UHGV virus genome: UHGV-1656500
Source of the DNA: a virus
Strand: one strand, 5' to 3'
DNA length: 11,226 nt
Below, piece after piece: positions 989 to 7,979 of the stretch. Below the pieces are notes generated by a model. That model searched no databases. It had not been told where the DNA came from and worked only from the letters and a program-made list of their open reading frames with translations. The first letter of the stretch is position 1. The number at the start of each line of letters is the position of its first letter. Both the position numbers and the translations under genes were made by a program.

Positions 989-1369
989 ATGGCGAACGGG
1001 TGGAGTATCGACCCCTCTGTTTTTATGAATCAGGTTGAGGAAGACGTTGGTAAAAAATTGCGTTTTATCTCGCTTCAGTTGCTGAATGAAATTGTCTCTC
1101 GCTCTCCGGTCGATACCGGGCGTTTCCGTGCGAATAATCAGGTGAGTATCGGCTCTCCTGAATACGGCACCACCGATACAACGGATAAAAATGGATCGGC
1201 GACTTTGCAGCAAGGTAGCGCTGTTATCGCGCAGGGAAAACCTTATTCAGTCATCTACATTCAGAATAACCTCCCATACGCGGAACCTCTGGAGAATGGT
1301 CACTCGCAGCAGGCTCCGGCAGGTATCTACGCTGTCTCATTCCACGGTGTAACACAGGCCTACAAATGA
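989..1369 (+). CDS. HK97 gp10-like head-tail joining (neck) protein
   Basis: 126 aa, GGAGGG RBS, start 1 nt after the upstream stop. Contains SPVDTGRFRANN, which resembles the conserved VDTGRLR motif I recall for the HK97 gp10 family. Confidence 0.6.
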   Translation: MANGWSIDPSVFMNQVEEDVGKKLRFISLQLLNEIVSRSPVDTGRFRANNQVSIGSPEYGTTDTTDKNGSATLQQGSAVIAQGKPYSVIYIQNNLPYAEPLENGHSQQAPAGIYAVSFHGVTQAYK

Positions 1370-1758
1370 CCCTCACAGAAATTCGTAACGCTGTCATTGC
1401 TCGCATGACGGCGCAGACGGCTATTGCCTCTGATGCTGTGGATTATCCAAATGGGCCGATATTTGACCCGGCGGGGAAATCTATCTGGGCGCGATTGACG
1501 AATATTCCCGGACTGGCTGGCGCTAATGAAATCGGCGGTGGTCCGGTTGTTCACCGTACCGGCGTACTCATCATTCAGATATTCGTTCCGGTTGGTAGCG
1601 GCTCTCTGCTGATAAACCAGACCGCCGACAAACTACGCGAGTTATTCGAATTCCAGGATGACGGAAAACTCAGTTATTTCGCCGTATCCGCTGTTCCTGC
1701 TGGTGAAACAGATGGCTGGTCTCAGCTCAATCTACAAATTCCTTACCGCGCTCTGTAG
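1366..1758 (+). CDS. Putative tail completion / tail terminator protein
   Basis: 130 aa. ATG at 1366 overlaps the upstream stop (ATGA). Lies immediately upstream of the major tail gene. Assignment by synteny and size. Confidence 0.5.
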   Translation: MTLTEIRNAVIARMTAQTAIASDAVDYPNGPIFDPAGKSIWARLTNIPGLAGANEIGGGPVVHRTGVLIIQIFVPVGSGSLLINQTADKLRELFEFQDDGKLSYFAVSAVPAGETDGWSQLNLQIPYRAL

Positions 1759-1784: not shown

Positions 1785-2705
1785 ATGTCGAGCGGCGCTA
1801 AGGTACTCTCGGCCTTTATACGGGAAACTACGGTAGGTGTAACTCCGGCAGGAGCGTGGAGTCTGATAAAGCGCTCCGCGTGGGGGGTGAAACCGACCCA
1901 AAACACAAATGACAATGACGAAATCGGTGGCACCCGCATGGCGCAGGGTATGTCGATGGGCACCGTTGATGTCGGTGGCGATGTGGCGACGAAGTTTCGC
2001 TGGGGACAGCATGATGCGTTTCTGGCGTCCTGCTTCGGTGCTGACTGGGTTGGCGATAGCCTGACGATGGGTAATGAACGTATCACGTTCTCACTCGCAA
2101 CGTATGCTTCCGATGTTGGTATCGCCTCTATCGTTCGCGGCGCGCAGGTAAGCGTGTTCCAGTTGGAGGTTCCTAACGACGGTGATGTTACCGCGACGAT
2201 CACTTTCGCCGGGCTGGGCTGGGATTCGAAAGCTGATGACACCAGTTATATCGAAGGAACACCTGCGGATAACTCTGGCGAGCTGCGTTACTCGTTCAAA
2301 GAGGTCACGGCAATCAACCTGAACGGCATCGACGGCGGTGATGGTTTCTGTATCGACACCTTCAACATCCAGTTCGACAACAACGTTCAGACCCAGCGTT
2401 GTATCGGCACCGGCTCACCATATGCCGGGGCCAATATTCCGACTACGTTCACGCCGTCAGGTTCAATCACATTATCCTGGTCTAAAGCTGCGTGGGAGGT
2501 TTGGAGCAAAACACTGACCGGGGCGACGGTGCCGTTTAGCTTCACCCTGGCGAACGACGAAGGGCAGTACACTTTCAACTTCCCGAAAGTACAGGTCGCA
2601 GGCGACTGGCCGGATGGGGGCAATACCGACATTATCCAGGTTCAACTCGATATCACTGCGGCAGACGAGTCACCGACCATTACCCGCACAGCTGCGGGCA
2701 GTTAA
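1785..2705 (+). CDS. Major tail (tube) protein
   Basis: 306 aa with a strong GGAGG RBS 8 nt upstream. Lies between the tail-terminator gene and the chaperone/tape-measure genes. Ser/Thr/Gly-rich composition is consistent with a tail tube protein. Synteny-based call. Confidence 0.6.
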   Translation: MSSGAKVLSAFIRETTVGVTPAGAWSLIKRSAWGVKPTQNTNDNDEIGGTRMAQGMSMGTVDVGGDVATKFRWGQHDAFLASCFGADWVGDSLTMGNERITFSLATYASDVGIASIVRGAQVSVFQLEVPNDGDVTATITFAGLGWDSKADDTSYIEGTPADNSGELRYSFKEVTAINLNGIDGGDGFCIDTFNIQFDNNVQTQRCIGTGSPYAGANIPTTFTPSGSITLSWSKAAWEVWSKTLTGATVPFSFTLANDEGQYTFNFPKVQVAGDWPDGGNTDIIQVQLDITAADESPTITRTAAGS

Positions 2706-2765: not shown

Positions 2766-3233
2766 ATGATTATCCTCAACCCACGAATTGATGTTGGTGG
2801 CGAGCGCTGGTTTACGCCGCTGAAAGATCTCAAACCCATTGAAGGCCTAAAGCTGCTCGTCAGCAGCATTGATAACGACCAGTATCGCTCGCGTAATGCG
2901 CTTATACGCCGCCACATTGAAAAAATGGATGCCAGTTACCAGGTGGGAACCAGCGAATTTAGCCTGTCTGCGGTCGGGGAAATTGACTCTGCCGATGATC
3001 TTCTGATCGACAACTGCGCGCGTTACCTGCTGAAAGACTGGAAGGGCGTTGGTGAGCTTGTTGAAGGCGAAGAAGTTCCGATTGAGTACACACCTGAACG
3101 CGGCGCTGCACTTCTGAAACAGGAACCAGCAATTTACTGGCAAATTCTGGCTGAAGCCGCCAGCATCGCCCAGGGCAAAGAGCAGCAGAAGCAGGAAACC
3201 GTAAAAAAGCCATCGAAGCGCAAAAGTGGCTGA
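2766..3233 (+). CDS. Tail assembly chaperone (lambda gpG-like), short zero-frame product
   Basis: ATG at 2766 with AGGAG 8 nt upstream (the track ORF starts further up at 2712 with no RBS). 155 aa, acidic, immediately upstream of the tape measure gene. Contains the slippery heptamer near its 3' end. Confidence 0.7.
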   Translation: MIILNPRIDVGGERWFTPLKDLKPIEGLKLLVSSIDNDQYRSRNALIRRHIEKMDASYQVGTSEFSLSAVGEIDSADDLLIDNCARYLLKDWKGVGELVEGEEVPIEYTPERGAALLKQEPAIYWQILAEAASIAQGKEQQKQETVKKPSKRKSG

Positions 3234-3553
3234 GTGAATTCGGTGGGGAGCAGGGTGAAAAGGCAAAGTGGCGAAGGGAGAAATTAAAACTCCCGCCAAT
3301 TCCCGAGCCTGAAATTGACGGCGTGACAGGGGAAATCCTCAACGCTTACTCCGTTATTTCCCGCTCCCGGCTGTATGCCGGGATGGCTGGTGCGCCACTG
3401 CCAATCTCACTTCATGATATTGAGCGCTTTCTTTCTGCACGTCCCGTCCTCATTGATCGCGATGAATTTGACGCGGCGATATTTGCCCTCGATGACGCAT
3501 GGCGTGAGAAGTGGGCGCAGGAACAGAAAAAACACGGCAAACAGAAACAATAA
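2766..3553 (+). CDS. Tail assembly chaperone frameshift fusion (gpGT-like), made by a -1 ribosomal slip at 3203-3209; about 262 aa
   Basis: The -1 frame is open from the slippery site to TAA at 3551-3553, checked codon by codon (...ETVKK|AIEAQKWLSEFGGEQGEK...KQKQ*). The annotated 76-aa ORF at 3323-3553 is the tail of this frame. Confidence 0.6.
3203..3209 (+). promoter_or_regulatory. Programmed -1 ribosomal frameshift slippery heptamer A_AAA_AAG
   Basis: In the chaperone frame the codons are GTA AAA AAG CCA, so A-AAA-AAG fits the X_XXY_YYZ rule. It lies 22 nt before the zero-frame stop, and the -1 frame stays open for another 114 codons. Confidence 0.65.
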
Positions 3554-3592: not shown

Positions 3593-5728
3593 ATGTCAGA
3601 ACAGACATCCCGCCTCGCTGTCATTATTGACAGCACCGGCGCAGAAAAAAATGCTGAAAGCCTGACCAGCGCCCTTCACGGGCTTACCGAGTGGGGGCAG
3701 AAAGCAGCGGCCAGCGCCGGGAAGGTAACGAAGGCGACCGAAGAAGAATCCGCTGCTTTATCGGAACTTCTGGACCGCATTGATCCGGTTAACGCGGCTC
3801 TGAATAAACTGGATAAACAACAGCAACAACTCGCGAAATTCAAGTCGAAAGGCATGCTGGACGATGAGACCTTTGATGTCTATTCGAAAAAAATCGAAGA
3901 GGCTCGTAATCGTCTCACCGGGTTTTCAGAGCAACTGAAAAATACTGGCATGTCAGCAAAGCAAACTGCTTTTGCGATGCGCATGATCCCTGCTCAGATG
4001 ACCGACATCGTCGTGGGTCTGTCTACCGGGCAAAGTCCGTTCATGGTGCTGATGCAGCAGGGCGGTCAGTTAAAAGATATGTTCGGTGGCATCGGACCTG
4101 CGATTAAAGGCGTTAGCTCCTATGTGATGGGCCTGATCAATCCTTTCACGCTGGCGGCTGCTGCGGTCGGCGTGCTGGGTGTGGCGTACTACAAAGGCAC
4201 GCAGGAACAGGACGCTTTCAATAAATCACTCATCCTGACGGGTAACCAGGTAGGGAAAACATCTGGTCAACTGGCGGACATTGCCGCGCGCGCTGGTGTA
4301 GCGGCGAACTCAACCACTGGCAAAGCGGCATCGGCGCTAAACCTACTGGTGGAATCTGGAAAGGTTGCCGGTGACTCGCTTGAGCGCGTGACCACTGCCG
4401 TTGTTAAAACGAGTGAAGCCACTGGTATTGCGACCGATAAACTGGTGGACGATTTCAACAAAATTGCCGCCGATCCGGTTGCGGCAATTACCAAACTGAA
4501 CGACCAGTACCACTTCCTTACGCTGGCAACTTACAACCAGATTAAGGCCCTCCAGGATGAAGGGAATCAGCAGGAAGCGGCGCGCGTTGCTACTGATGCT
4601 TACGCCACCACCATGCAGCAGCGTGCCGCAGATATTCAGGATAATCTCGGTTATCTCGAAAAGGCATGGAACGGACTCACCGGCGCAGCAAAAGGTGCAT
4701 GGGATGCAATGCTGGGCGTTGGGCGCGAGCAGTCTCTTGAACAACGACTGGCTGATGCGACTAAAAAGGCAAATGATGCACGCGGCAAAGCCGTGGGTAA
4801 TATTTTCGGTGTGCCAGGGTGGCAAACTGAAGCGGCAGCAGCGGCTAATTTTCTGCAAAGTGCTATCGACCTGCAAGGCGACCTTACAAAAGCTGTCGCG
4901 GCTGGCAGAGAAGAGCAGGATAAGGCAATTAAAATACAGCAGGAAGCTGATCGCGTTAACCAGCAGTTCCTGTCGAATGCTGATAAGCGAAACAAGGCGA
5001 TTCAGCAGCAGAAGAAATTCCTTGATGCCGGGGCCATCAGTGCAGATCAGTACGCGAAAAATATCGCGCGCATCAATGAAATGTACAAAGACCCTAAATC
5101 GCCAACAGCACCGAAGGGAAAAGCATATAGCGAAGATGCAGCGACACGACTGCTGGATCAGATTAACCAGCAGACATCCGCTATGCAGTCCCAGCTTGAC
5201 GCCAGCGATAAGCTCACCAGCGCCACCCAGGCGCGAGTGAAATTTGAACAGCAGATAGCTGACCTCAAATCGAAAACGCAGCTCACCGCCGATCAAAAAT
5301 CGCTTTTGTCCCGCTCTGAAGAAATTATTCAGGCCTACAAACGACAGGAGGAGTTGCAAAACTCCGTTAAAACGCTCGACGATTACCGGAAAATGCAGGA
5401 GCAGGTTAAAGCGAAGGATGAGCAGCAGAATGATTTGCTTCGCGAACGGCTTGCGCTGCTGGAAAAAGCAAAAGCCACAGGGAAGCTGGCGCCGGGGGAA
5501 TACGAGCAAACCCGATCTGATATTTACAAAAACACTCCAGCGGAGTTGCCTTCTTCAGTGAAGAGTGTGGTTGGCAACCTGTCACCGACTGGCGGCCAGT
5601 TATCCGGCACGTTCGGCGGTATGCAACAGCAGTACATTCAGCTCGATCAGGCGCAACAGCAGTTACAGACGTGGTTGCGGCATATGCCCAGGCTGCGCAA
5701 ATCACCACGGAAGGCGAAGCGCGCATGA
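3593..5728 (+). CDS. Tail tape measure protein, N-terminal ~690-aa part (frame interrupted near 5660-5675)
   Basis: ATG at 3593 with GGAG 6 nt upstream. Long Ala/Gln/Lys-rich, coiled-coil-like translation with a hydrophobic Gly-rich segment (VVGLSTGQSPFMVLMQQGG...AAAVGVLGVAYY), as is typical of tape measure proteins. The final ~20 residues of this frame (TWLRHMPRLRKSPRKAKRA) look non-native. Confidence 0.8.
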   Translation: MSEQTSRLAVIIDSTGAEKNAESLTSALHGLTEWGQKAAASAGKVTKATEEESAALSELLDRIDPVNAALNKLDKQQQQLAKFKSKGMLDDETFDVYSKKIEEARNRLTGFSEQLKNTGMSAKQTAFAMRMIPAQMTDIVVGLSTGQSPFMVLMQQGGQLKDMFGGIGPAIKGVSSYVMGLINPFTLAAAAVGVLGVAYYKGTQEQDAFNKSLILTGNQVGKTSGQLADIAARAGVAANSTTGKAASALNLLVESGKVAGDSLERVTTAVVKTSEATGIATDKLVDDFNKIAADPVAAITKLNDQYHFLTLATYNQIKALQDEGNQQEAARVATDAYATTMQQRAADIQDNLGYLEKAWNGLTGAAKGAWDAMLGVGREQSLEQRLADATKKANDARGKAVGNIFGVPGWQTEAAAAANFLQSAIDLQGDLTKAVAAGREEQDKAIKIQQEADRVNQQFLSNADKRNKAIQQQKKFLDAGAISADQYAKNIARINEMYKDPKSPTAPKGKAYSEDAATRLLDQINQQTSAMQSQLDASDKLTSATQARVKFEQQIADLKSKTQLTADQKSLLSRSEEIIQAYKRQEELQNSVKTLDDYRKMQEQVKAKDEQQNDLLRERLALLEKAKATGKLAPGEYEQTRSDIYKNTPAELPSSVKSVVGNLSPTGGQLSGTFGGMQQQYIQLDQAQQQLQTWLRHMPRLRKSPRKAKRA

Positions 5729-6459
5729 CGGCAATTCGCCAGCAGGCTGCGCAGGCCAACCAGGTAATCGAATCCCAGAAAAACGAAATCATCACCAGTG
5801 CGACGCAAACCATGATCGACAGTGGTTTGCAGATTCTGGCGACTGGTTTCGGGGAGCAATCCGGGATTTATAAAGCGGCGTTCGCTGCCAGCAAGGCATT
5901 CGCTATTGCACAGTCTCTGGTTTCGATCCAGCAGGGGATAGCAATGGCGGCGGCTAACCCGTTCCCGTACAACATCGCTGCGATGGCATCCGTTGCAGCG
6001 GCGACGGCGAGCATCGTTTCTAATATCGCAGCTGTTGCGGATGTTGGTTTTGCTGTCGGTGGTTTTACGGGCCCGGGCGGAAAATACCAGCCCGCCGGGA
6101 TAGTGCATAAAGGCGAGTATGTTTTTGACCAGGCTGCAACCAACCGGATAGGCGTCTCGAACCTTGAGGCGCTGCGCAATGGTGGTTCTCTGGATGCAAC
6201 GCTGAGCAAGCCCGGTTTCGGTACGGGGGCGCAGAACGTCAATAACAACAGTAATTCAACTGTATTCAGCCCCCAGATTCAGCAGGACTTCCATATTCAG
6301 CAGGGTGTAACGCCTGAGCAGATGGATATGTCTCTCGCCAACACCGCCAAAAAGGCGACGACGGACGCAGTTGATCAGGTGGCGAACCAGATTGTCCGGG
6401 GTAACGGGAAAGTGGGTAACGCAATGCGAGGAACGTACACCGGAAGGAGAACGACCTGA
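5671..6459 (+). CDS. Tail tape measure protein, C-terminal ~262-aa part in the -1 frame relative to the upstream part
   Basis: This frame is open from 5521 and its first start codon is GTG at 5671. The translation (VVAAYAQAAQITTEGEARMTAIRQQAAQANQ...) continues the tape-measure-like composition. The stop overlaps the next gene start (TGATG). Confidence 0.7.
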   Translation: MVAAYAQAAQITTEGEARMTAIRQQAAQANQVIESQKNEIITSATQTMIDSGLQILATGFGEQSGIYKAAFAASKAFAIAQSLVSIQQGIAMAAANPFPYNIAAMASVAAATASIVSNIAAVADVGFAVGGFTGPGGKYQPAGIVHKGEYVFDQAATNRIGVSNLEALRNGGSLDATLSKPGFGTGAQNVNNNSNSTVFSPQIQQDFHIQQGVTPEQMDMSLANTAKKATTDAVDQVANQIVRGNGKVGNAMRGTYTGRRTT

Positions 6460-7466: not shown

Positions 7467-7979
7467 GTGAAACGATTTTTGCTGGTTTCTGCCGTAATTT
7501 TACTGGCCGGATGTTCGGCTAAATACAATACGAACAATATTCAGAGCAACACTGAGCAGTTAGTCAAAGATGCTCCAGTTGCTATTGCTATGCCATCTGA
7601 TGGGGTATATGAAACCCGCACATATGCTGGCTCTGGAAATTCGACAGCGACTGCATTAAAAGCTGCTTTTTTGCGACATTCAGATAACGTAGCGATTTAC
7701 GCTGATTGTGAAGATGTTACTTGTCTGAAAAATAATCATACAATCCATCATGGATACTACGTTGTTCCTCAGATATTGCATTGGGAGGACAGGGCTACTG
7801 AGTGGTCAGGAATTCCAGATAAAATTGAAGTGAAAATTACAATTTATAATGCAGAATCCAACAATCGGATTGCCTCAACGATTATTAGCGGGAAAAGTAA
7901 GTGGGCAACATTTGGTGGTGATCATCCGCAAGACTTGTTGCCAGAGCCAGTAAACTCGTACATCTCCAGCCTGTATTGA
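7467..7979 (+). CDS. Lipoprotein encoded by an AT-rich moron; function unknown
   Basis: GTG start with AGGGA 7 nt upstream. The N-terminus MKRFLLVSAVILLAGCSA is a textbook type II signal peptide with lipobox LAGC (Cys16). GC is roughly 30-38% against roughly 55-65% in the flanking tail genes, counted by eye on a few 60-nt lines. A strong terminator follows. Confidence 0.7.
   Translation: MKRFLLVSAVILLAGCSAKYNTNNIQSNTEQLVKDAPVAIAMPSDGVYETRTYAGSGNSTATALKAAFLRHSDNVAIYADCEDVTCLKNNHTIHHGYYVVPQILHWEDRATEWSGIPDKIEVKITIYNAESNNRIASTIISGKSKWATFGGDHPQDLLPEPVNSYISSLY

Follow-up and report, generated by a model that had tools for sequence, protein, structure and literature searches.

A lambda-family tape measure gene split between two reading frames by a 13-bp deletion in a Citrobacter koseri prophage tail module

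The window, by which we mean the whole 11,226-nt stretch of DNA analysed here, is part of the siphovirus tail module of a Citrobacter koseri prophage, and its lambda-family tape measure gene is carried in two reading frames. Alignment of both open reading frames (ORFs) to intact homologues reveals one gene, as the preliminary description of this DNA had proposed, split by a frameshift that traces to a single 13-bp deletion. We judge it slightly better than an even bet (a probability of about 0.55) that this is a real, recent deletion private to the copy in the window, and we infer that it exists in the organism, beyond the reads.

Identity and genomic setting of the gene

The product of the first ORF matches two Pfam tape measure domains. 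PF06791 (TMP_2) covers residues 114-318 of the 711-aa product with 273.7 bits, against a cut-off of 30.2 (the Pfam gathering threshold), and PF24622 (TMP_4) covers residues 514-589 of the same product with 89.5 bits. No Pfam domain was found in the frame-1 part, which matches several PHROG tape measure families over their C-terminal regions (e.g., phrog_1506, E = 3e-45). Judged by sequence, the window gene belongs to the lambda-family tape measure proteins (PF06791) as a disrupted copy, be it a pseudogene or an artefact; in place of an uninterrupted reading frame, the window copy is split at 5677/5678. The gene also lies where a tape measure gene is expected in a tail module: the tail tube gene and a −1 frameshift chaperone pair precede it, and the tip and central fibre genes follow (Table 1). 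Like lambda G/GT, the chaperone pair has a first ORF that stops at 3233 and a −1 frame that is open over 3155-3553. Gene callers give the 3′ part of the chaperone as a separate 76-aa gene (3323-3553).

The intact counterpart is the tape measure protein of C. koseri prophages, here P0001 (959 aa; CP166747.1/GCA_041344885.1 and JAOWGI010000024.1/GCA_030333225.1). Apart from the missing bases, its DNA is identical to that of the window, with 0-2 substitutions in 2,867 nt. P0001 loci have the same flanking genes as the window, from which they differ by 1-2 substitutions over the whole 11.2 kb. The joined protein had been put at ~955 aa, a figure that gives way to the 959 aa of P0001; by the rule of thumb of 0.15 nm per residue, 959 aa would correspond to a tail of ~144 nm, compared with ~140 nm in the preliminary description.

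P0001 in turn matches lambda gpH (853 aa; PDB 8IYK chain H) with an E value of 1.6e-61 over two collinear stretches, residues 115-651 aligning to 55-607 and residues 736-881 to 650-790. The second stretch, which includes a GGFTGxGGKYxPAGIVHxGExVF motif, falls wholly within the portion of the gene that the window has out of frame. Both the lambda gene and the window gene belong to PF06791, and both follow a chaperone pair that has a −1 slippery site. They differ in that the intact relative is ~100 aa longer than gpH, that the window copy is broken, and that the downstream tip genes of the window (phrog_384, DUF1833, the 126-aa minor tail and the 905-aa gpJ-like genes) are not the M-L-K-I set of lambda.

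The module has two further features. A DUF4823 gene (7467-7979), predicted to encode a lipoprotein with a signal peptide and an LAGC lipobox, is flanked by the DUF1833 tail gene and the gene for the 126-aa minor tail protein, and has a terminator-like hairpin of its own behind it (8001-8022). The related locus L007 has no such gene at the matching position, which suggests a moron that entered the tail module, possibly with a surface or superinfection exclusion role. Separately, loci L003, L004, L006 and L009, which carry an identical tape measure gene, diverge from the window upstream of ~604, where they have different head-tail connector and head-proximal genes. Their identity to the window is ~99% downstream of ~604, with none upstream, a pattern that indicates mosaic recombination at a module boundary.

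Table 1. Coordinates of the tape measure gene, its break and its tail-module neighbours in the window
Feature	Position	Strand	Description
Tail terminator	1366-1758		
Tail tube	1785-2705		Phage_tube_2
Tail assembly chaperone	2766-3233		phrog_313, 155 aa
Tape measure ORF, N-terminal part	3593-5728	+	Frame 2, 711 aa; ORF list
5′ part of tape measure gene	3593-5677	+	Native frame 2; residues 1-695 of intact protein; ORF and translation
Frame-1 ORF	5671-6459	+	262 aa from first GTG; ORF list
Deletion junction	5677-5678	+	13 bp (GCAGGCTCAGGAA) missing; DNA alignment with 8 intact loci, whole-window alignment
Out-of-frame tail of truncated product	5678-5728	+	16 non-native codons (RHMPRLRKSPRKAKRA, 5678-5725) and TGA (5726-5728)
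3′ part of tape measure gene	5680-6459	+	Now frame 1; residues 701-959 of intact protein (coding 5680-6456)
ATGA overlap	5725-5728	+	Frame-1 ATG (MTAIRQQ..., 244 aa) over premature frame-2 TGA
Genes 3′ of tape measure			154-aa structural protein (phrog_384), DUF1833 protein, 126-aa minor tail protein, 905-aa gpJ-like protein
gpJ-like gene	8426-11143		905 aa

A 13-bp gap between the two frames

The ORF list and translations bear out the two-frame arrangement first described for this DNA, with a tape measure ORF that stops at 5728 and a frame 1 that is open from 5521 through 6459. Frame 1 has a TGA at 5518-5520 and then stays open up to the TAA/TGA at 6457-6459, and the frame-2 stop is, by translation, a premature TGA. 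The two ORFs match collinear parts of a single protein (residues 1-695 and 701-959 of P0001, at 100% identity) and collinear parts of a single PHROG profile (positions 120-837 and 879-1063 of phrog_24), and they are therefore more than a chance overlap. Native frame-2 sequence ends with ...QQLQTWL (5677), and native reading picks up at AYAQAAQITTEGE (5680) in frame 1; likewise, in tblastn searches with intact homologues, the frame-2 match stops at ...QTWL. An earlier reading of the junction as QT/VVAAY must be amended, as the W-L that follows ...QQLQT is native frame-2 sequence and the VVA that opens frame 1 is not native. The non-native end of the frame-2 product, first estimated at ~20 residues, comprises 16. 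The 3′ part of the gene, beyond the break, holds the hydrophobic segment, the gpH-like motif and the C-terminus.

The nature of the break was established by DNA alignment with 8 intact loci, among them one on the complete C. koseri chromosome CP166747.1, one in a draft isolate genome and others in several independent metagenome and Logan assemblies. Besides 0-2 substitutions, the sole difference from the intact genes over 2,867 nt is a single 13-bp gap, and the tape measure DNA shows no substitutions at all relative to L003, L006, L008, L009 and L010. Intact relatives read TGGTT-GCAGGCTCAGGAA-GCGGCA where the window reads TGGTTGCGGCA, and P0001 across the break site reads ...LQTWLQAQEAAYAQAAQ... 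/ ...LQTWLQAQEAAYAQAAQITTEGE.... Relative to P0001, the window lacks the codons Q-A-Q-E (Q696-E699) plus one base, which leaves its gene frameshifted and truncated. The deleted 13 bases start with GC and GC comes next, a 2-nt microhomology across which the breakpoint may be placed anywhere from 5676/5677 to 5678/5679. The preliminary description had put the frame switch at 5660-5675 and likened it to a 1-nt deletion or a 2-nt insertion. A single switch by frameshift stands, but alignment to the P0001 loci moves it a few bases downstream, to 5676-5679; similarly, the effect on the frame does equal that of a 1-nt deletion, but the lesion is a 13-nt deletion (four codons plus 1 nt). A 1-nt insertion, giving a protein of 955 aa, is ruled out by the 100% identical 959-aa homologue, comparison with which shows a 13-nt deletion.

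More diverged homologues are intact at the deletion site. The Klebsiella prophage tape measures ST974-OXA48phi18.2 (QBP28659.1, 960 aa) and ST16-OXA48phi5.1 (QBQ71715.1, 1109 aa), from a different host genus, share 69-74% protein identity over their full length and are single ORFs in which the segment WLAAQEEAYAKAGEIT spans the break position. They match frame 2 through ...QQLQTWL and frame 1 from ITTEGE, and the DNA alignment contains a 13-nt gap. Klebsiella prophage DNA, which alone was matched in a nucleotide search of the phage collection, was rejected as the reference for the lesion, because at 73-84% identity over part of the gene it is too distant, and a 13-nt gap could reflect lineage variation. 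At the protein level, the spacing from the W to ITxEGE is exactly 13 residues in all 120 nearest homologues, 95 of which read LQAQEAAYAQAAQ.

The junction contains no repeats of ≥10 nt; what is present is the 2-nt microhomology and a CAGGCT repeat of 6 nt whose copies are spaced by 24 nt and do not coincide with the breakpoints. A 50-nt stretch across the junction, folded with DNA parameters as a local test, reaches −5.2 kcal/mol and is no better than shuffles (z-score +0.83). A hairpin or long direct repeat was accordingly discarded as the cause.

Recoding or a functional split

Two overlapping frames may also be read as functional, either through −1 frameshifting within 5521-5728 or through 711-aa and reinitiated 244-aa polypeptides that jointly serve as the tape measure. 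We regard this as very improbable, and the comparative data already largely refute it. The circumstantial points in its favour are that the frame change goes in the −1 direction and that a frame-1 ATG overlaps the premature stop, with a GGAAGG (5709-5714) 10 nt upstream of that ATG. However, no X_XXY_YYZ slippery heptamer is present in 5521-5728 in any frame, and the sole homopolymer in this interval, an A5 at 5528, lies 150 nt upstream of the change in homology frame. The search for slippery sites has a positive control within the window, as the chaperone gene contains the canonical A_AAA_AAG at 3203-3209, a site kept in all related C. koseri loci. Nor was a stable stimulatory structure found at the junction, where the local fold described above is not more stable than shuffles.

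Comparison with relatives argues in the same direction. The best 120 homologues (cluster representatives; 954-1192 aa) are single proteins in every case, as are the Klebsiella phage homologues and lambda gpH. Programmed frameshifting was rejected on these grounds together with the missing heptamer, and the preliminary description was right to call it unlikely, having noted the same lack of a slippery heptamer or a homopolymer near the junction. The 120 single proteins likewise dispose of the idea that two separate proteins are the conserved state. Moreover, the deletion that made the two-frame arrangement also takes out 4 conserved codons, and the arrangement was found in no other genome.

The 244-aa sequence that begins at the ATG of the ATGA overlap is identical to the recorded protein P0129. 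This ATGA site is fortuitous, and we infer that a separate 244-aa C-terminal fragment could be expressed from it by reinitiation. A further possibility combines a real deletion with a live prophage, in which the 711-aa ruler and a reinitiated 244-aa tip-anchoring/membrane fragment assemble in trans into a functional tail, possibly a shorter one. We consider this exceedingly unlikely; if true, the trans-assembling fragments would constitute a naturally split tape measure protein.

Real deletion or artefact

The two explanations that remain are exactly those between which the preliminary description had hesitated, an artefact and an inactivating mutation. An exact look-up places both truncated products on one contig only, NODE_1372_length_11226_cov_2.89795 of ENA analysis ERZ1303568, a metagenome contig which is the window, and the 711-aa product forms a singleton cluster on that one contig. 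Two samples are listed for the contig, the second of which may be an independent run or a bin of that assembly. The intact 959-aa P0001 is carried by at least 24 C. koseri prophage contigs. An exact 28-nt pattern across the deletion junction has no match in IMG/VR, in the JGI metagenome contigs or in the GTDB representative genomes, and the intact junction is found in 2 IMG/VR contigs. The GTDB representatives are without the intact junction also; the exact prophage allele is missing there, so the absence of the deletion from GTDB is uninformative. Complete E. coli genomes gave no megablast match to the junction region, so the host is not E. coli.

Over the full 11,226 bp of the window, the deletion is accompanied by one substitution relative to L008 and by two relative to L005. 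Its private differences relative to these two loci are only two, the 13-bp deletion and a G>A at 10783, a position at which L003, L004, L005, L007 and L008 all have G. The substitution turns a Met codon (ATG) of the 905-aa gpJ-like central fibre gene into one for Ile (ATA), and may be either genuine variation or an error due to low coverage.

If the gap is an artefact, 13 bases were lost in library preparation (by a polymerase template jump in PCR or MDA), in a faulty read or in thin-coverage assembly. We hold this to be possible, at somewhat under even odds. The contig comes from a SPAdes-type assembly and has a k-mer coverage of ~2.9 (2.89795, a whole-contig value taken from the contig name), and as few as one or two reads may support the junction. 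This thin coverage counts against a real deletion, as do the restriction of the allele to one contig, versus 24 with the identical intact gene, and the absence of the junction from the other collections searched (IMG/VR, JGI metagenomes, GTDB representatives). An artefact would also fit a window in which every other gene is intact and identical to its relatives, and the non-synonymous G>A at 10783 is equally explicable in this way.

Other observations weigh against an artefact. Nearly all read errors in Illumina data are substitutions or homopolymer indels of 1-2 nt, and a 13-nt deletion is atypical of them. Because the junction has no repeat of ≥10 nt or hairpin, neither a de Bruijn graph shortcut nor a false gap closure is explained, and the local sequence likewise offers no long repeat or stable hairpin for a polymerase jump. 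Outside the deletion, the 11.2-kb contig is essentially free of errors, having no more than one private substitution. We count in favour of a real deletion that the gene differs from intact genes only by the 13-bp gap and that the copy is slightly diverged, by the substitution at 10783.

Other broken copies of the gene are on record. Sixteen C-terminal fragments of this tape measure family (the P0123-P0136 cluster) come from other assemblies, two of them, of 283 aa and 118 aa, from complete C. koseri chromosomes of 4.77 Mb and 4.76 Mb. The existence of such copies, for example the 283-aa fragment on a C. koseri chromosome, indicates that real decay of the tape measure gene occurs, and its disruption seems to recur in this prophage family. 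The recorded fragments that reach the break segment all keep an intact QAQEA, so their breaks lie elsewhere.

The real deletion remains our preferred explanation, and the lesion would be recent, since the remaining genes of the window are all intact and nearly indistinguishable from those of functional-looking relatives. Were the gap an artefact, the real gene would be the intact 959-aa tape measure, and the prophage may be fully functional.

Predicted consequences and significance

If the deletion is real, the loss of 13 bp between the GC/GC microhomology would shift translation by one base, and the ribosome would read 16 wrong codons before it stops at 5726-5728. The predicted product would hold 695 native residues and miss the last 264 of 959. 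The lost part would comprise the hydrophobic segment, the GG(F/Y)TGxGGKYxPAGIVHxGExVF region common with lambda gpH, and the C-terminus; the truncated protein would keep the N-terminal part and the central ruler. In lambda, the C-terminal residues 818-842 of gpH make up a three-helix coiled coil in the lumen of the tail tip, held by the gpI trimer/plug, which places the gpH C-terminus in the tip, the starting point for polymerisation of the tube (PMC10721106). By analogy with gpH, a tape measure protein without its C-terminus would not be anchored in the tip complex and tail assembly could not start. Loss of the gpH-like end would thus probably abolish tail assembly, and the prophage would make no infectious tailed particles.

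The window holds a disrupted copy of a well-known gene family in a known, widespread C. koseri prophage; a small out-of-frame deletion is ordinary, and a low-coverage artefact would be equally so. Whichever explanation is correct, the locus should be annotated as one disrupted tape measure gene and not as two proteins. If the gap is an artefact, the lesson is that frameshifts in contigs of ~3x coverage are not to be read as biology. A real deletion would leave the widespread C. koseri prophage freshly defective in this copy, with a single lesion and all else intact, a textbook early step of prophage domestication or decay.
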